Source: Planctomycetota bacterium
Lineage (GTDB): Bacteria; Planctomycetota; UBA1135; UBA2386
Assembly (NCBI GenBank): GCA_016872675.1
Contig: VGZG01000003.1
Span: 175-64,174, forward strand
Reading direction: 5' to 3'
Length of the DNA: 64,000 nt
Part shown: positions 55,979-64,000 of the stretch, in pieces
How the letters are laid out: the number at the start of each line of letters is the position of its first letter
Numbering within the stretch: position 1 is the stretch's first letter
Translations under genes and position numbers: made by a program
Notes under the pieces: generated by a model
Told to the model about the DNA's origin: nothing
Database searches by the model: none
Seen by the model: only the letters and a program-made list of their open reading frames with translations

Positions 55979-57487
55979 TCAGATGCGCTTTTCGTAGATC
56001 GGGCCCTTCTCGAAGTACTCGTTCTCCGAGCCGACCGTGTCCATGTCGTACTTGCGGCCCTCGAGGATCATCCGGCTGGCGATGATGCCCATCTCCAGGC
56101 TGTGATCCTGGTTGGTGTAGCGGAAGCGACCGGGCCGGCCGACGTAGACGAGGTTCTCGAGCCGCTCGAGCCAGCCTTGGATCGTGGCGAGGCGCGCCTT
56201 GTACTCGTTGTCGTAAACAGGGTAGACGTGCGGCCGCTTCCACAGGTAGGCCTGCCGGACCTCCTTGCGGCTGAAGAACCCCCACTTCTCGAAGTACGGC
56301 ATGACGAGATCGAGCACCTGCTCCTTCGTCATCGCCCAGATCGCGTCGCCTTCGAAGGCGAAGAACTCGATGAAGAACGATGTCTTGCCCGGCGGGCACA
56401 TGTCCGGGCTGAAGTTCTTCATCTCGCTCGTGCGGCCGAACGGGATGTCCTTGCTCGGGAAGTAGATCCAGTTGTCGTCGGTGACCTTGTCCTTGTCGAG
56501 CGTGAGGAACAGGTACACCTGCGCGCGCCACTTCAGCTGGCTCGCGGCCGACGTCACTTCGGGCGGTGGCGGCGGATCGAGCAACGTGAGGAAGTGCGTC
56601 AGTGGCACCGACTCGACGACGTGCTCGGGCTGCACGGTGACGACGCCCTCGGGCGACTTCAGGTCGACGGACGTGATGCGCTTGCCATCGTGCCGAACCT
56701 TGACCGGCTCGGTGCGCACGCGGATCTCGGTGCCCTTCTTCTGCAGGTGACGGCCGATCTCCTCGTAGATCGTGCCGGTGCCGAACTGCGGGTAGTAGAA
56801 CTCGTCGACCAACGACTTCGGGCCCTTCTTGCCGCGCAGACCAAGCGCGTTCTTGAAGACGCTCCAGAGGTTGAGCCCGTGGATGCGCTGCTTCGCCCAG
56901 TCCGGGTGGATGTCGCGCACCGGGATGCCCCAGATCTTCTCGGTGTAGTTGATCATCGAGAACTCGGCGAGCGCGCGGCCGAAGTTCGCGACGACGTAGT
57001 CCTCGAAGGTGCGCAGCGGCTTCTGCAACAACCCGTAGCGCAGGCGCGCCAACACGTAGTCGACGCCGATGCGGCAGCTGCGCCAGAAACCGAGGTTGCG
57101 GACGACCTGCTGGAAGTTGACGGGGTAGTTGTAGTACTTGCCCTCGATGAACTGCCGGGTGAGACGCGGCACCTTGCGCCACTCCTCGTGCAGCAGGTCC
57201 TCGATGAAATCGTAGAGGTACTTGTTCTTCGAGAAGAAGCGGTGCGGGCCGATGTCGGTCAGGAACTCCAGCTCGCCTTCGCGGACTGTTAGCGTCTTGG
57301 CGAGGCCGCCGACCTGCTCGTCACGCTCGATGACGAGCGCCTTGCGACCTTTCTTCGACAGCTCCATCGCGCAGGCGAGGCCTGCCGGGCCGGCGCCGAG
57401 CACGAGCACGCCAGGCGTCGACACCGCGGAACCGGCGGAACCGGTGGGCTGCGCAGCGGCCTTGGGGTCTTCAGCGGGCGACGGCAT
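55979..57487 (-). CDS. FAD-dependent oxidoreductase (amine-oxidase / UDP-galactopyranose-mutase-like fold)
   Basis: 'VLVLGAGPAGLACAMELSKKGRKALVIERDEQVGG' is a GxGxxG-E dinucleotide motif. The conserved C-terminus is 'VGRPGRFRYTNQDHS'. The protein is Lys/Tyr/Phe-rich, and the gene has visibly lower G+C than its neighbours. Confidence 0.75.
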   Translation of the reverse strand: MPSPAEDPKAAAQPTGSAGSAVSTPGVLVLGAGPAGLACAMELSKKGRKALVIERDEQVGGLAKTLTVREGELEFLTDIGPHRFFSKNKYLYDFIEDLLHEEWRKVPRLTRQFIEGKYYNYPVNFQQVVRNLGFWRSCRIGVDYVLARLRYGLLQKPLRTFEDYVVANFGRALAEFSMINYTEKIWGIPVRDIHPDWAKQRIHGLNLWSVFKNALGLRGKKGPKSLVDEFYYPQFGTGTIYEEIGRHLQKKGTEIRVRTEPVKVRHDGKRITSVDLKSPEGVVTVQPEHVVESVPLTHFLTLLDPPPPPEVTSAASQLKWRAQVYLFLTLDKDKVTDDNWIYFPSKDIPFGRTSEMKNFSPDMCPPGKTSFFIEFFAFEGDAIWAMTKEQVLDLVMPYFEKWGFFSRKEVRQAYLWKRPHVYPVYDNEYKARLATIQGWLERLENLVYVGRPGRFRYTNQDHSLEMGIIASRMILEGRKYDMDTVGSENEYFEKGPIYEKRI

Positions 57488-57584
57488 GTGGCGTGGCGGA
57501 CCGTAAGCAGCCTAGCTCATCGTCCGCCAGTGTGCGGAGTTGGAGACCGTGACGAGGTTCCGCGCCGATCCGATGGCACCGGCG

Positions 57585-59435
57585 TCACGCGGACGGCTTG
57601 TGGGCCCATTCTTCGAGGCTGTAGCGGACGTTCTGCGGGATCGGCGCCTTCGCGCGGTCGGCGATCTCCTGCAGGATCTGGGCGCCCGTCAGCCCGTCGG
57701 CCAACCCAGCGCGCACGGAGGCCTCGTCGATGCGGAACTGGTGCACGTGGTCGCTCTTGGTGCGGTGCGCGAATCGATCGAACAAGTGCACGACATCGTG
57801 CACGTCGTCGCCTGGGAAAACCAGCACCTCGAAGTCCGGCAACACGATCACCATGCTGCGCGCGCCGCCGGCCTTGGCCGCCGGATCGGCGTCGAGCAGC
57901 TCGGCGCCAAGGCGCGAGAGCCGCACCGCCGTGACGCGGCCCTGGTGCATGCCGAGGTCGACGACGCCGAGCGGGAACAGGCGCTTCTTGACCCACACGA
58001 GCAGGTTCCACGCCATCTGCTGCAACGACTCGCCAGGCGTGTAGCCACCGCCCTGGAAGCGGGCGGCGAAGAACTCTTCGGTTGGCGCCGCCTCGAGTTG
58101 CGCGAGATAGGCGTTGCGGGCCAGGAAGGGCAGGATCGAGACGTCTTGCCACTGCATGGGCTCGGCGCGGCGCAGCAGGCGCAGGAAAACGCGTCGCAGC
58201 CGGGCATGGTGGTACGCCTCGCCCGGCAGCGTGCGATCCTCGACGAAGTGCGCGACCAGCGTCTTCAGTTGCTCGCCCAACGGCGCGCGCTCGAACTCGC
58301 CTCCGGCCGGCGTCGGCCGCAGCGCCCGCTCGCCGCGACGGTCGACGAGACGCCGCTGCAGGCAGAAACGGAAGATCGTCTCCAGCAACGGTTCGGCGCC
58401 GAGGAAGCCCCCGGGCACTGGCAGCAGCGTTCCGGCGATGCGCTTCTGCGAGGCTTTGAACAAGTCGCCCTCGGCAGTGAACAGCACCTTGCTCTGCTGC
58501 AGTTCACGCAGGAAGCGGCCGACGTTGGTGACGAAGTCGCCGCGACAGGACAAATCCTCGGTGACCACGGGCACATGCTCTTCGCCGCGCTTCTTCAGCG
58601 CGTGCAACGCGACCTCGTGGAACACGACCACCGCGTGTTCGACCGGTTGGATGCCGATGCGGGCGAGGTCGAGGTCGGCGACCGCGCCGAGCATCGCCTC
58701 GGAGAGGCACTTGCCGACCAGCGCGCGATCGGGCGGCTGCTCGAACTCGACCTCGCGCAAGACCTCGTCCCAGCCGGCGATGCCGCCGTGCTTGAAGAGC
58801 ACATCGTCGACGATCGCAGCGACCGGACGCGGCAGCTTTGCCAGTCGCTGCGCGATCGAGCTCTCCATCGCGTAGAGCTTGTAGATCTTGCGCGCGTGGT
58901 CGGCGGCCTTGTCGTCGTCCTTGCCGACCGGCTTGCCGGTGGCCGCCCGCTCGCGAAAGTAGCGCGCGTCGAGGAAGCCCTGCAGCGTGAGCGCGTCCTG
59001 CAGCAGCCGCTGCCGGCGCTCTCGCGCCCGCAGCACGCACTCGACCAGCTCGCTCGGCACCGCCCAGCTCGGCGAGTCGAACGTCGCCCAGCGCTTGTCC
59101 TTGACGTGCCAGACGAACGCCTCGCGATGCAGAGTCGCAAGGGCCGCCTCCAACTCGAAGCGGCTCTTGAAGTGCTTGCCGCACTCACTCACCAGCGCCT
59201 GCACCGGCCGCACCGCGCCGCCGGGCGCGAAGAACGGCTCGAGCAGGTCCTGCAGTTTCTTAGGCAGCGCGGAAATGCGCGCTTGCGCCCTGGCCTCGTC
59301 CTCCATCGCCTGGGCGGCCGCCACCAGCGACGGCTTGGCGTCGCCGGCCAGCAAGCCACACCAGCGGAACACACACTCGCGCAGCGCCGAGTCGCCAGCC
59401 CCTTGCAGCAGCATGCGCAGGCTGAGGCGGGTCAT
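57585..59435 (-). CDS. XPB-associated protein (helicase-associated, Helicase_C_3-like C-terminal module)
   Basis: 616 aa with non-shadow composition. The ATG at 59435 overlaps the XPB stop as ATGA. The C-terminal approx. 90 aa 'VIVLPDFEVLVFPG...FDRFAHRTKSDHVHQFRI...GLTGAQILQEIADRAKAPIPQNVRYSLEEW' is collinear with the XPB N-terminal domain. Confidence 0.65.
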   Translation of the reverse strand: MTRLSLRMLLQGAGDSALRECVFRWCGLLAGDAKPSLVAAAQAMEDEARAQARISALPKKLQDLLEPFFAPGGAVRPVQALVSECGKHFKSRFELEAALATLHREAFVWHVKDKRWATFDSPSWAVPSELVECVLRARERRQRLLQDALTLQGFLDARYFRERAATGKPVGKDDDKAADHARKIYKLYAMESSIAQRLAKLPRPVAAIVDDVLFKHGGIAGWDEVLREVEFEQPPDRALVGKCLSEAMLGAVADLDLARIGIQPVEHAVVVFHEVALHALKKRGEEHVPVVTEDLSCRGDFVTNVGRFLRELQQSKVLFTAEGDLFKASQKRIAGTLLPVPGGFLGAEPLLETIFRFCLQRRLVDRRGERALRPTPAGGEFERAPLGEQLKTLVAHFVEDRTLPGEAYHHARLRRVFLRLLRRAEPMQWQDVSILPFLARNAYLAQLEAAPTEEFFAARFQGGGYTPGESLQQMAWNLLVWVKKRLFPLGVVDLGMHQGRVTAVRLSRLGAELLDADPAAKAGGARSMVIVLPDFEVLVFPGDDVHDVVHLFDRFAHRTKSDHVHQFRIDEASVRAGLADGLTGAQILQEIADRAKAPIPQNVRYSLEEWAHKPSA

Positions 59436-61141
59436 GCGCGACTCTCCGCGCCGGCCGCGGCGGCGTCGGCGGCGAGCAGGTCATCGGCCTGCACGATCTC
59501 GTAGGCGTAGCCCTGTTCGGTCAGGAACAGCTGGCGCTTCCGCGCGAACTCCTGCTCGCGCGTGTCGGCGCTCACAACCGTGTAGAAGCTCGCCGGCCCG
59601 CCGTCAGCCTTCGGCCGCAGCACGCGGCCGAGGCGCTGCGCCTCCTCCTGGCGGCTGCCAAACGTGCCGCTGACTTCGATCGCGACGTTGGCGTCGGGAA
59701 GGTCGATCGCAAAGTTGCCGACCTTGCTGACCATCAGTCGCTTGATCTGGCCGGCGCGGAAGTCCGCGTAGAGCCGGTCACGCTCGGCGTTGGGCGTCTG
59801 GCCGGTGATCAGCGGCAGCGCGAAGACAGTGGCCAGCCGCTGCAACTGCTCGAGGTACTGGCCGATCACCAGGACGCGGTCGGCGGCGTGCCGGCGCAGC
59901 AGCGCGCCGAGGACGTCCTCCTTGCGTTCGTTGTCGGCGGCGATACGGATCTGGCTGCGCGCGCCCGCGGCGTTGTAGCGCGCCGCACGGGCCGCGCCGA
60001 GCGGGGTGCGCACCTCTTGGCAGAGCGCGACGGCGAGGAATCCCTGCCGCTCGAGCAGCTTCCATGGCAACTCGTAACGCTTGGGACCGATCAGCGAGAA
60101 CACCTCGTCGGCGCGGCCGTCCTCGCGCACCAACGTCGCCGTCAGGCCCAGGCGCCGGCGCGCCTGGATGCCTGCCGTCGCCCGGAAGACCGGCGCCGGC
60201 AGCAGGTGGACCTCGTCGTATACGATCAGCCCGAAGCCGCCCTGATCGAACAGGTCGAGGTGCGTAAAGGCGTCGAGCTTGGCCTTGCGATGCGTCAGGA
60301 TCTGGTAGGTCGCGACGGTCACCGGCCGCACCTGCTTGTGTTCGCCGGTGTACTCGCCGACCTGGTCGGGCGTGAGCGTGGTCTTCTCGAGGAGCTCGCG
60401 CACCCATTGGCGCACCGCGACCGTGTTGGTCGTCAGCACCAGCGTATTGGTCTGCAGCAAACCCATCGCCGCGATGCCGACGACCGTCTTGCCGGCGCCG
60501 CACGGCAACACGACCACGCCGCAACCGCCGCGGTCGCTGCCGCCGGCGTGGAAGGCCGACGCCGCCGCCTGCTGGTACTCGCGCAGCCGGAAGCCCGGTC
60601 CTCCGGCCGGCGCCTCACGCAGCGCGAACGGCAGCGTCTCGCCCTGCCGGTAGCCGGCGCGGTCGTCGACCGGATAACCGAGCTTGACGAGCGCCTGCTT
60701 GACCTCGCCACGCGCCTCGGCGGCGAGCGACACGCCGCCATCATCGTCGACCTCGACGAGCTTCTCCACGGTCGGCTGCTCGACGAGCTCTTGCAACGTC
60801 GCCGGCTCGTCGCAGCGCAGCGCCAGCCGGCCGTTGGAGCCAGGCGCCAGGCGCAACAGCCCGTAGCGGCGGAACCACTCGCGCACCTGCGACAGCACCG
60901 TCGGCACGATCGGAAAGCGCGACGCGCGCACGAGCCAATCGCAAATGTCGTCAGCGCGTTCGCCAAGCGCAGCGGCGTTCCAGCAGCTGACTGGCGTGAT
61001 CTTGTAGAAGTGCACGTACTCCGGCGACTTCTCCAGCTCGGCGAAACGCGCCAACCGATCGCGCGCCGCTTCGTACTCGGGATGCGTCGTCTCGAGCAAC
61101 ACGGTGCGGTCCGTCTGCACGATCAAAGGCGGTTCGTTCAT
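59432..61141 (-). CDS. xpb: XPB/ERCC3-type SF2 DNA helicase
   Basis: The start is ATG 61141 (MNEPPLIVQTDRTVLLE). Motifs present: Walker A 'LPCGAGKTVVG', 'VYDEVHLL', the XPB-specific RED motif in 'GLTATLVREDG', and motif VI 'GSRQEEAQRLGRVLR'. The start overlaps the uvrA stop as ATGA. Confidence 0.85.
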   Translation of the reverse strand: MNEPPLIVQTDRTVLLETTHPEYEAARDRLARFAELEKSPEYVHFYKITPVSCWNAAALGERADDICDWLVRASRFPIVPTVLSQVREWFRRYGLLRLAPGSNGRLALRCDEPATLQELVEQPTVEKLVEVDDDGGVSLAAEARGEVKQALVKLGYPVDDRAGYRQGETLPFALREAPAGGPGFRLREYQQAAASAFHAGGSDRGGCGVVVLPCGAGKTVVGIAAMGLLQTNTLVLTTNTVAVRQWVRELLEKTTLTPDQVGEYTGEHKQVRPVTVATYQILTHRKAKLDAFTHLDLFDQGGFGLIVYDEVHLLPAPVFRATAGIQARRRLGLTATLVREDGRADEVFSLIGPKRYELPWKLLERQGFLAVALCQEVRTPLGAARAARYNAAGARSQIRIAADNERKEDVLGALLRRHAADRVLVIGQYLEQLQRLATVFALPLITGQTPNAERDRLYADFRAGQIKRLMVSKVGNFAIDLPDANVAIEVSGTFGSRQEEAQRLGRVLRPKADGGPASFYTVVSADTREQEFARKRQLFLTEQGYAYEIVQADDLLAADAAAAGAESRA

Positions 61142-64000
61142 GCTACGCCCTCGTCCTTGGCCGTCGCCTTGCCGGCGGCCTTCGGGCGCCCCCTGCTCCT
61201 GACGCGCCGACGGGTCGTCGCCGCCGCGGCGGCCGAAGCGCGCGAGCCGAGCCGCTCGCGCAGGAACCGGCCGGTGTGGCTCGCGGCGCACGCCGCGGCA
61301 GCCTCTGGCGTGCCTACGACGACGATACGCCCGCCGCCCGCCCCGGCTTCCGGTCCCATCTCGATGACGTGGTCGGCGGCGGCGATGACGTCGAGGTGGT
61401 GCTCGATCACCACCACCGAATCGCCACGCGCGAGCAGGCGGTCGAGCACCGCCAGCAACTTGCGCACGTCGTCGGCGTGCAGGCCCGTGGTCGGTTCGTC
61501 GAGCACGTAAACCGTGTGCTCGCGCGGCCGGCGCGCCAGCTCGGCGACCAGCTTGATGCGCTGCGCCTCGCCGCCCGAGAACGTGTTGGCTGGCTGACCG
61601 AGCGTCAGGTAGCCGAGGCCGACATCGGCCAGCAGCTGCAGCGGTCGCACGATGTGCTTGTGGTTGCCGAAGAACGCCAGCGCCTCATCGACGTCCATGC
61701 CGAGGACCTGGCTGATGTCCTTGCCGCGGTACTGCGCCGACAGGGTCTCGGCGTTGTAGCGGCGGCCGCGACACTGTTCGCACGTCACCCATACGTCGGC
61801 GAGGAAGTGCATCTCGACCAGGATCTGGCCCTTGCCCTCGCACTGGCCACAGCGGCCGTCGCTGACGTGGAACGAGAAGCGACCGGGCCCGAAGCCCTTC
61901 TGCTTGGCGAGCGGTGTCGCCGCGAAAAGCTCGCGGATCGCAGTGAACGCGCCGGTGTACGTCGCCGGGTTGCTCGACGGCGAGCTGCCGATCGGGCTCT
62001 GGTCGACGACAACGAGCGCGTGCGGCCTCGCCTCGCCGTCGGCCCAGTCGATCGTGACGCGGCCGTCGCGCAGGCCAGGCACCAGCGCGTCCATCACCAG
62101 CGACGATTTGCCGGAGCCGGATACGCCGGTGACCGCGGTGAAGCAGCCGAGCGGCACGTCGACGTCGACGCCGCGCAGGTTGTGCACGGTGACGCCGCGC
62201 AGCGCCGCGTTGCCCTTCGGCACGCGCCGCTGCTCGCGGATCGTCGGCGCCAGCTCGCCGCGCAGCCAACGTCCGGTCACGGTGTCGGTGGCGGCGACCG
62301 CTGCCGGCGCGCCGTGCGCGACGACGCGGCCGCCGCGCACGCCCGCGCCGGGCCCCATGTCGACGACGCAGTCGGCGGCGCGCACCATGACCTCGTCGTG
62401 CTCGACCGCGAGCACGGTGTTGCCGAGGTCGCGCAGATCGAGCAACGTGCGCAACAAGCGCTCGGTGTCGCGTGGATGCAGGCCCACCGTCGGCTCGTCG
62501 AGCACGTACAGCACGCCGACCAGCCGGTTGCCGAGCTGGGTGGCGAGGCGGATGCGCTGCGCTTCGCCGCCCGACAGCGTCGACGCCGAGCGGTCGAGCG
62601 TCAGGTAGCCGAGTCCCGTGTCGCGCAGGAACGTCAGGCGGTTGTGCAGCTCCTTGAGCACGTCCTGGGCGATGCGCTTCTCGTTCGCGTTCAGCTTCCA
62701 CGCCGCGAGCCGCGCCAGCGCCATGTCGACGGTGTCAGCGAGGACCTCCGGCAGGCGCGCGCCGCCGACGCGCACCGCGCGCGGGCCCGGCAGCAACCTT
62801 TCGCCGGCGCATTCGGGGCACGGCTGGCTCCGCATCACCGCGCCAAAGCGCGGATCGCCGGCATCGTCGCCTTCCTTGCCGAGGAACCACTCCTCGACCT
62901 GGCGCGCGAGCCCCTTCCACGCCACCTGCATGCGCCACTCGCGGCGGCTGCCGCCGCCGTCCTTCTTGAACACCACCTCGAAGCGCTCGTCGCCGGCGCC
63001 GCGCAGCAGCAGCTTGCGCACGTCGGGGGACAGCTTGCGCCACGGCTTGCTCAGGTCGAAGCCGCGCCGCGCGGCCAATGCCTGCGCCACCTCGGCGAAG
63101 TACCCGTCGCGCCCGACCAGGAAGCTGAACGCCGCGCCAGGGTGCTGGATGGCGCCACCGAAGGCCGGCTTGTCCGGATGGTTGACGAGCAGTTCCTCAG
63201 CGCACACCACGACGTTGCCAAGGCCAAGGCAACTCGGGCAGGCGCCGCTGTGGTGGTTGAACGAGAACCAGCGCGGATGCACCTCGCGCGGGGCCTCGTA
63301 GCCGCACAGGTGGCAGCCAGCCTCGGCGCGGAACCAATGCCGCGCCCCCTTGTCGTCGCCGTCGGCGAGTTGCACCACCGCGGCGGCAGCGCCGCCGTGC
63401 GCCCCGGCGGCCGCCTGCGCCTGCTCGATCGCGTCGGCGAGGCGCGCGCGATCGCCGACCGTCGCACGATCGAGCACGAGAAAGAGTTCGCTCGGCGCGA
63501 CCTTGCCCCACGGCTCGTCGATGCGGCGCTCGACGCCGTCGATTAGCGCGCGCACGTGGCCGGCCGCCTGCCACTCACGGCGCAGCGCCTCGAGCCAGCC
63601 CGCCGCGGCGTCCGGCGGGACCGCGATCGGCGCCAGCACGAACACGCGCCGGCCCGGCCAGTCGCCGACGCAACGCGCCGCGGCCTTGCTCGGCGACCAC
63701 GCCGCGAGTTCCTGGCCGTGCGTCGGACAGTGCGCGCGGCCGATGCGCGCGTACAGCAGGCGCAGGTAGTCGTGGATCTCGGTCGTAGTCGCCACCGTCG
63801 ACCGCGGGCTGCGCGCGGTGCGCTTCTGATCGATCGCGATCGCCGGGCCGAGGCCGTCGATGCGGTCGCACGGCGCCCGGTCCATGCGGCCGAGGAAGCG
63901 GCGCGCGTACGTCGACATGCTCTCGAGGAAGCGGCGCTGCCCTTCCTGGAAGATCGTGTCAAAGGCGAGGCTCGACTTGCCGGATCCCGACGGGCCGGTG
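61138..64000 (-). CDS. uvrA: Excinuclease ABC subunit A (UvrA), 5' end outside window; basic C-terminal tail
   Basis: The reading frame continues upstream of the track's Met to the window edge (...TGPSGSGKSSLAFDTIFQEGQRRFLESMSTYARRFL). Motifs present: 'AIAIDQK', two 'LSGGEAQRI' signatures, the second Walker A 'GVSGSGKSSL', and zinc modules 'CPECAGERL' and 'CGQCEGKG...CEQCRGRRY'. Confidence 0.9.
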   Translation of the reverse strand, partial: TGPSGSGKSSLAFDTIFQEGQRRFLESMSTYARRFLGRMDRAPCDRIDGLGPAIAIDQKRTARSPRSTVATTTEIHDYLRLLYARIGRAHCPTHGQELAAWSPSKAAARCVGDWPGRRVFVLAPIAVPPDAAAGWLEALRREWQAAGHVRALIDGVERRIDEPWGKVAPSELFLVLDRATVGDRARLADAIEQAQAAAGAHGGAAAAVVQLADGDDKGARHWFRAEAGCHLCGYEAPREVHPRWFSFNHHSGACPSCLGLGNVVVCAEELLVNHPDKPAFGGAIQHPGAAFSFLVGRDGYFAEVAQALAARRGFDLSKPWRKLSPDVRKLLLRGAGDERFEVVFKKDGGGSRREWRMQVAWKGLARQVEEWFLGKEGDDAGDPRFGAVMRSQPCPECAGERLLPGPRAVRVGGARLPEVLADTVDMALARLAAWKLNANEKRIAQDVLKELHNRLTFLRDTGLGYLTLDRSASTLSGGEAQRIRLATQLGNRLVGVLYVLDEPTVGLHPRDTERLLRTLLDLRDLGNTVLAVEHDEVMVRAADCVVDMGPGAGVRGGRVVAHGAPAAVAATDTVTGRWLRGELAPTIREQRRVPKGNAALRGVTVHNLRGVDVDVPLGCFTAVTGVSGSGKSSLVMDALVPGLRDGRVTIDWADGEARPHALVVVDQSPIGSSPSSNPATYTGAFTAIRELFAATPLAKQKGFGPGRFSFHVSDGRCGQCEGKGQILVEMHFLADVWVTCEQCRGRRYNAETLSAQYRGKDISQVLGMDVDEALAFFGNHKHIVRPLQLLADVGLGYLTLGQPANTFSGGEAQRIKLVAELARRPREHTVYVLDEPTTGLHADDVRKLLAVLDRLLARGDSVVVIEHHLDVIAAADHVIEMGPEAGAGGGRIVVVGTPEAAAACAASHTGRFLRERLGSRASAAAAATTRRRVRSRGRPKAAGKATAKDEGVA

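Follow-up and report, generated by a model that had tools for sequence, protein, structure and literature searches.

The right end of a 64,000-nt window from a Planctomycetota bacterium (contig VGZG01000003.1) contains three consecutive leftwards-transcribed genes that encode the C-terminal half of a UvrA damage sensor, an XPB helicase/translocase, and a p52/Tfb2-like partner protein. The window is the whole stretch of DNA analysed, and coordinates refer to it unless preceded by a locus designation (e.g. L001); the region studied spans positions 57585–64000 (6416 nt), with all three genes on the minus (−) strand. As judged by comparison of sequences and gene order, the three genes are a conserved, translationally coupled operon-like unit of which the region in the window is the distal two-thirds. 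The product of the complete uvrA gene is likewise read from sequence as a single-chain covalent pseudo-dimer, with a canonical first copy and a second copy remodelled where UvrB would dock. The genes, their junctions, and two features of the UvrA chain are as follows (lengths in amino acids, aa).

57585–59435 (−): p52/Tfb2-like partner, 616 aa, a winged-helix array followed by a clutch domain
59432–61141 (−): XPB helicase/translocase, 569 aa, with its ATG start inside the ATGA at 61138–61141
61138–64000 (−): 3′ half of uvrA (second, C-terminal copy of the tandem gene), with the frame open as far as position 64000
61138–61141 (−): ATGA shared by the uvrA stop and the xpb start
59432–59435 (−): ATGA shared by the xpb stop and the partner start
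61148–61152 (−): GAGGG Shine-Dalgarno-like motif, 6 nt ahead of the XPB ATG and within the uvrA coding sequence
59442–59447 (−): GGAGAG Shine-Dalgarno-like motif, with a 6-nt spacer to the partner ATG
61141–61245 (−): Arg/Lys-rich C-terminal UvrA tail, 35 aa
63316–63711 (−): diverged segment at the UvrB/Mfd-binding position of the second UvrA copy, 132 aa, without the motif LAPVVRxRKGE

A preliminary description of this DNA had reported three minus-strand genes joined by ATGA overlaps at both junctions, a 616-aa third gene, the XPB RED motif TATLVREDG, and an Arg/Lys-rich 35-aa tail at the C-terminus of UvrA, all of which are present, TATLVREDG at XPB aa 334–342. A single promoter-like site is found upstream of uvrA (L001:2368–2395), and no terminator-like sites are found between the three genes. 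The GAGGG motif matches a conserved Glu-Gly close to the end of orthologous UvrA tails, and the last residues of the tail are, on this sequence evidence, constrained by the xpb Shine-Dalgarno motif. A basic tail of varying sequence is present in most UvrA orthologues and may add non-specific DNA affinity. The xpb gene can also be read as a 619-aa open reading frame (ORF) starting from a GTG at 61291, which overlaps the UvrA tail in another frame. Nine XPB orthologues from distant lineages start at an ATG with the sequence MNxxPLIVQ, and because all orthologues start there the GTG extension is regarded as spurious.

The tandem UvrA

An exact-protein look-up with the partner identifies a 62-kb Joint Genome Institute (JGI) metagenome contig (L001) with only 2 mismatches to the window in the 6416 nt from 57585 to 64000. 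The full uvrA gene on this contig (L001:2473–8298) is 5826 nt long and encodes a 1941-aa protein containing two complete UvrA units joined by a ~25-residue linker. The window ends 95 nt past the start of the second unit, and the first 32 codons of the second copy are absent from it; no uvrA start codon is present within the window, the frame running past position 64000, beyond which the first UvrA copy and the promoter are located. Because the window stops at this point, the preliminary description saw the second copy alone. Its account of a full-architecture UvrA with two ABC (ATP-binding cassette) signatures and zinc modules holds for the motifs, which are all present (GPSGSGKS and GVSGSGKS, LSGGE and FSGGE, two copies of YVLDEP, VEHD and IEHH, and CxxC pairs), but the gene is one half of a 1941-aa tandem duplication and has a diverged UvrB-binding segment.

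The two UvrA copies are 48% identical to each other and both resemble class I UvrA. Against the UvrA equivalog model TIGR00630 the part in the window scores 992.8 (cut-off 729.8), and against NF001503 it scores 1012, under the cut-off of 1147; the full 1941-aa protein passes both, scoring 2260.7 and 2327.9 respectively, each in two stretches. Compared with the class I structure of Mycobacterium tuberculosis UvrA (3zqj), the first copy gives 1025 bits and the second 848, whereas the class II proteins give 616 and 575 bits (Deinococcus radiodurans UvrA2, 2vf7) and 476 and 485 bits (7sh1). Neither copy is placed in class II (UvrA2/DrrC/Ecm16 type), whose members lack the UvrB-binding domain and the first zinc module, the class I scores being far higher and a domain-sized segment being kept at the UvrB-binding position.

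The copies differ in that segment. In the first copy, the UvrB/Mfd-binding domain matches solved UvrA structures with expect values (E) of 1e-23 to 3e-15; these include the isolated Escherichia coli and Geobacillus interaction domains (4dfc_B and 3fpn_A among the matches), with which it shares the LAPVVRxRKGE motif. The corresponding segment of the second copy (63316–63711) has no match at E≤10 among solved structures in the PDB, the second copy scores 19.7 against Pfam UvrA_inter (PF17760), under the cut-off of 23.3, and LAPVVRxRKGE is missing from the second copy in every lineage examined. Among the domains of the second copy this segment also varies most between species, with a mean column conservation of 0.67 as compared to 0.82 in the first copy. 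Across lineages, first copies are 54–76% identical to first copies and second copies 47–71% identical to second copies, but the two types are only 42–48% identical to each other. Because the copies group by type across lineages, the fusion is old and its asymmetry conserved, both predating the divergence of the lineages. The tandem ORF is unbroken in 30 full-length loci; in one 6.6-Mb metagenome-assembled genome (MAG) the first copy is broken by one in-frame stop (L030:1696–8322), which may be an assembly error or real decay.

Relative to UvrABC systems, both copies retain two ABC modules, an insertion (DNA-binding) domain and a C-terminal zinc module, have class I proteins as their best relatives, and the first copy has a canonical UvrB/Mfd-binding domain. 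Canonical class I UvrA, however, is a ~940-aa chain that forms a homodimer, whereas here two units reside in one 1941-aa chain with a basic tail at its end, the UvrB-binding segment of the second unit is unrecognisable, and the gene does not stand alone but has predicted translational coupling to the XPB and p52-like genes. UvrA proteins of about twice normal length are also represented by the chlamydial family NF001885 (1809-position model), and Chlamydiae are in the same Planctomycetes-Verrucomicrobia-Chlamydiae (PVC) superphylum as the Planctomycetota. The full protein described here scores 1267.8 against this model, below the cut-off of 3054, and is thus not a member of the chlamydial family. 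We know of no XPB linkage in Chlamydiae.

XPB and its p52/Tfb2-like partner

The domains and motifs of the two downstream gene products are located as follows.

60758–61126 (−): XPB N-terminal domain, aa 6–128 (PF13625, 105 bits), predicted docking site of the partner clutch
60485–60499 (−): XPB motif I, GAGKT
60206–60217 (−): XPB motif DEVH
60119–60127 (−): XPB RED motif (R-E-D), within TATLVREDG
57600–57851 (−): partner C-terminal clutch domain, aa 529–612 (PF13625, 48.4 bits, profile positions 1–83 of 125)

The XPB protein matches the NCBIfam XPB equivalog NF045503 with 807.6 bits (cut-off 610), residues 5–550 aligning with profile positions 1–548. Its Pfam domains are Helicase_C_3 (PF13625, aa 6–128), ResIII, and ERCC3_RAD25_C (PF16203, aa 363–553), the motifs GAGKT, DEVH, TATLVREDG and QEEAQRLGR are found, and an ATPase/translocase role is predicted from family membership. 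Among solved relatives it matches yeast and human XPB with 291 and 268 bits (in both cases including the N-terminal domain) and archaeal XPB with 154 bits, and by these sequence scores is of the eukaryote type, nearer to eukaryotic than to archaeal XPB.

NCBI assigns an identical copy of the 616-aa partner to a Planctomycetes MAG. The sole Pfam match of the partner is a Helicase_C_3 domain at its C-terminus, the same domain that forms the N-terminus of XPB. A shallow partner profile (A1) finds nothing among solved structures, and a profile of 44 diverse family members (A2) matches the human XPB N-terminal domain (E 2.4e-5) and, weakly, the clutch region of yeast Tfb2 and human p52 (E about 0.01). 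An AlphaFold2 model of the partner was built from a 58-sequence alignment reaching down to 35% identity (predicted local distance difference test, pLDDT, 88.6; predicted TM-score, pTM, 0.75); it replaces a first model from 26 sequences with a pLDDT of 59, in which the middle part was unusable. In a Foldseek search of the PDB with the 58-sequence model, ranks 1–20 are all p52/Tfb2 chains of independent TFIIH structures (E 5e-8 to 8e-4, probability 0.99–1.00, mostly about 430–460 aligned columns), and XPB/Ssl2 N-terminal domains follow from rank 22 with a root-mean-square deviation of 1.6–1.9 Å over about 90 residues. According to the model the partner is a p52/Tfb2-like protein, a structural homologue with a clutch homologous to the XPB N-terminal domain. 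No p8/Tfb5-binding C-terminal domain is detected, the chain stopping within the clutch (profile position 83 of 125), and a distant member of the partner family (P0249) scores 19.2 bits against Pfam Tfb2 (cut-off 34.5). Because the p8-binding domain is missing and the Pfam Tfb2 threshold is not reached, the partner is filed as a structural homologue of p52 and not as a member of the p52 family.

The partner gene adjoins XPB in every locus of the partner family examined, and from this adjacency and the homologous domain pair the protein is predicted to bind XPB and stimulate its ATPase. The archaeal analogy raised in the preliminary description, in which XPB pairs with the Bax1 nuclease, is not borne out: no nuclease or Bax1 match is present in Pfam or NCBIfam, and the predicted fold is p52-like. 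In P0264, P0319, and P0320 (L064:149–1789) the clutch/XPB-N-terminal domain (Helicase_C_3) is combined with a WYL domain, which suggests that these are ligand-sensing or regulatory relatives of the family, and at L054:10001–12024 the partner is split by a frameshift in one MAG, again perhaps an assembly error or real decay.

In TFIIH, p52 recruits XPB through a pseudo-symmetric dimer of two homologous domains (Greber et al. 2019, PMC6422496). The pair described here resembles XPB-p52(-p8) in having an XPB nearer to those of yeast and human with its N-terminal domain present, a partner with p52/Tfb2 as its best structural matches, and a partner clutch homologous to the XPB N-terminal domain, as in p52. 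It differs in that the partner has no Pfam Tfb2 match and no p8-binding domain, the operon lacks genes for p8, p34, p44, p62 and XPD, and the upstream sensor is UvrA rather than XPC. The archaeal XPB-Bax1 pair similarly has XPB next to a dedicated partner gene, presumably as a two-protein unit, but the partner here has no nuclease or Bax1 signature and the XPB is closer to the yeast than to the archaeal protein. The M. tuberculosis XPB (Rv0861c), a characterised 3′–5′ helicase and ATPase (PMC3353954), has the same domain set. According to the same study, no p52 or p44 homologues had been identified in bacteria, and bacterial XPB probably works outside any TFIIH-like complex (PMC3353954), whereas here a p52-like partner and UvrA are operonic with XPB.

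Distribution of the gene order

Gene order was surveyed using one genome per GTDB species, giving 52 loci with partner identities of 58–94% that are annotated as Planctomycetota MAGs or as unclassified or doubtfully binned MAGs. Sequence upstream of XPB is present at 44 of these (the informative loci), the other 8 being cut by contig ends. In all 44 a UvrA gene ends at XPB and the order tandem UvrA, XPB, partner is kept, such that the linkage of uvrA to xpb, which the preliminary description proposed to check in related genomes as a guard against a fortuitous association, is conserved. The 4-bp overlaps recur at the uvrA/xpb junction in about 37 of the 44 loci and at the xpb/partner junction in 46 of 48, and the coupling thus exceeds that expected by chance. 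More distant loci retain the trio: L059–L061 (partner 37–51% identical) with thiE-type flanks, and L065 and L067 (partner 27% and 23% identical, respectively) with a tandem UvrA of 1934 or 1935 aa followed by XPB and the partner among unrelated flanks. In L065, genes on the opposite strand bound the trio on both sides. Among the genomes with the operon, OZ245838.1 (7.19 Mb), JBKAGP010000001.1 (6.59 Mb) and GCA_016716265.1 are complete or nearly so.

A broader sample of 80 metagenomic XPB loci (51–75% XPB identity, G+C 0.35–0.74) contains five with a UvrA-family gene directly upstream of XPB. One (L072) is of the tandem type, and the other four carry a ~1300-aa UvrA paralog directly upstream of the XPB/p52-like genes (L076:5685–9995, L078:1523–5569, L092:4232–8245, and L138:4672–8556) at loci ranging in G+C from 0.48 to 0.74. 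These paralogs are 35–55% identical to each other, score 234–353 bits against the UvrA cut-off of 729.8, and have no match to the Pfam domains UvrA_inter (UvrB-binding) or UvrA_DNA-bind (insertion domain). Each contains one active-looking UvrA-like unit and a degenerate C-terminal unit of ~550 aa (hhalign probability 97%, E 4.7e-11) in which Walker A is missing and both the signature and Walker B are altered. For the partner cluster nearest to that of L138, the NCBI name refers to a Myxococcota MAG. Across these sequences, a UvrA-family gene coupled to XPB/p52-like genes is always a tandem unit by its predicted architecture, with the second copy remodelled or degenerate.

The XPB/p52-like pair is also found in other settings. 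In another Planctomycetota lineage (L062:786–12052 and L063:760–12061) it ends a dnaN-dciA-gyrB-(apbA)-gyrA string with the XPB start overlapping the gyrA end, and is thus linked to replication and topology genes and not to uvrA. L068 has the pair on its own, and in L069 XPB comes after a partner-like gene of 915 aa. At L082, L103, L122, L128, and L140, which are from other bacteria, XPB is followed by two consecutive Helicase_C_3 genes of 750–850 aa instead of one p52-like gene. Searches of the 64-kb window for uvrB, uvrC and a second uvrA, using E. coli query sequences, found none, and the same search across the fetched loci gave a sole match, a UvrC-like gene at L093:18821–20086 (−). On this unrelated high-GC metagenome contig, where no uvrA adjoins XPB, the gene is encoded ~7 kb downstream of XPB and on the other strand.

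The G+C content of the window is ~71%, and that of the three-gene stretch is in line with the remainder. An FAD (flavin adenine dinucleotide)-dependent amine-oxidase-like gene (502 aa, 55979–57487, −) follows the partner on the same strand after a 97-nt gap. An oxidase gene occupies this position in most close-clade members but is absent from L044, L045, L048, L050, L051, and L058–L061; as thiE sits nearer to or directly after the partner in several of the loci without it, the oxidase looks like a later insertion. Upstream of uvrA is a small divergent gene (L001:1906–2256, −; 116 aa) that is conserved in many clade loci (46–80% identity), has no Pfam match, and adjoins the only promoter-like site found. 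Two antisense ORFs opposite the partner (57540–59504, +; 654 aa) and uvrA (61276–63546, +; 756 aa) are shadow ORFs of the kind usual in 70% G+C DNA, and not genes.

Proposed function and its alternatives

Comparative genomics gives good support to a functional UvrA/XPB/p52-like module, and a physical coupling of its members is hypothetical. The explanation that we favour, as somewhat more probable than its alternatives taken together, is that the tandem UvrA recruits the XPB/p52-like translocase to lesions as a joint module. The ATGA overlaps and internal Shine-Dalgarno motifs would provide roughly equal amounts of the three proteins. As in TFIIH, XPB would be held and stimulated through pairing of its N-terminal domain with the partner clutch, while the tandem UvrA would locate lesions that distort the helix and deliver the translocase there, plausibly via the remodelled domain of its second copy. 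XPB could then open or remodel the DNA, and the canonical first UvrA copy may still load one UvrB for verification and incision. The preliminary description had suggested either a hybrid UvrA-XPB module or a specialised UvrA paralog dedicated to XPB; the conserved coupled unit and the specialised paralog in the second group of loci agree with this, but the linkage is not general (5 of 80 loci).

Several observations weigh against a joint module. Most of the sampled XPB loci, including those of other Planctomycetota, have XPB and the partner without uvrA. With its 1025 bits to the M. tuberculosis protein, the first UvrA copy resembles a normal housekeeping UvrA, and the operon might reflect nothing more than repair genes being expressed together. 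Flanking genes are also loosely conserved in the close clade (an inositol phosphatase upstream and thiE/thiL/tsaE downstream), and part of the order conservation there may consequently be simple inheritance. For the partner, Pfam Tfb2 (PF03849) has no match in the window protein at E≤0.01, and the p52 match rests on a 3Di/sequence alignment with low whole-chain TM-scores (0.15–0.31), which we take, from the model, to mean that the winged-helix domains are placed differently relative to one another.

Co-expression without a joint machine is a possible but rather unlikely alternative. A housekeeping UvrA would then work with UvrB and UvrC encoded elsewhere and merely share a promoter with XPB/p52-like, a separate translocase whose role could be strand annealing, recombination or transcription-linked remodelling. 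Such an arrangement fits a first UvrA copy that is fully canonical with its UvrB/Mfd-binding domain intact, a whole protein that passes both equivalog cut-offs, neighbouring genes that are housekeeping, and the XPB-partner pairs that occur without uvrA in other lineages. It accounts less readily for 4-bp overlaps that are kept across lineages with partner identities of 23–27% and unrelated flanks, for the loss of a recognisable UvrB-binding segment specifically from the second copy in every lineage, and for the non-housekeeping UvrA paralog that occupies the same position at four other loci.

The module might instead clear lesions or roadblocks without excision: UvrA would sense distorted or drug-bound DNA, and XPB/p52-like would strip off drugs, proteins or stalled complexes with no part played by UvrB or UvrC. 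The class IIa UvrA Ecm16 provides drug resistance without UvrB, UvrC or UvrD (PMC9328131) and, with the other class II protein DrrC, serves as a model for such a process. The ~1300-aa paralogs that lack UvrA_inter and UvrA_DNA-bind matches and the joining of the XPB-partner pair to gyrB-gyrA, and so to DNA topology, in another planctomycete lineage point the same way. We nonetheless consider it improbable here, as both UvrA copies match class I proteins far better than class II (1025 and 848 bits versus 616 and 575), the first retains its UvrB-binding domain, and the neighbourhood contains no biosynthetic cluster or resistance context. The least credible explanation, and a very improbable one, is a module for anti-phage defence or of a mobile element, composed of a UvrA-like ATPase and a helicase. 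PADLOC matches UvrA to the mad3/mad8 models and XPB to PbeA, but these reflect generic ABC-ATPase and superfamily 2 (SF2) helicase similarity and the partner has no PADLOC match. The genes also lie among conserved housekeeping genes in the close clade and not in a variable island, their GC content is in line with the remainder of the window, and they are stably present in the chromosome across the clade.

A more far-reaching form of the joint module is a 'proto-TFIIH-like' lesion-opening machine, in which the asymmetric UvrA takes the role of XPC and docks XPB/p52-like at the place of UvrB on its second copy, and with which the eukaryotic XPB-p52 pair shares direct ancestry. We regard this as doubtful; if true, part of TFIIH would have a bacterial origin, and nucleotide excision repair would have a third architecture.

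All of the components belong to known families, and what is new is their combination and the asymmetric single-chain UvrA. In the non-subscription literature that was searched, we found no description of an XPB-UvrA operon, of XPB in Planctomycetota, or of a bacterial p52 homologue, and no paper describing the UvrA-XPB coupling that the preliminary description had thought uncharacterised. A 2026 review still calls the function of bacterial XPB elusive (PMC13024598). The dedicated p52-like partner and the operonic link to a bacterial damage sensor make that function directly testable, and the module could reveal by what route a double-strand translocase reaches lesions when XPC is absent. A natural asymmetric covalent UvrA dimer could help to tell apart what each protomer does, which is a topic of current structural studies of UvrA, and the occurrence of a eukaryote-like XPB with a p52-like protein bears on the source of the XPB-p52 submodule of TFIIH.

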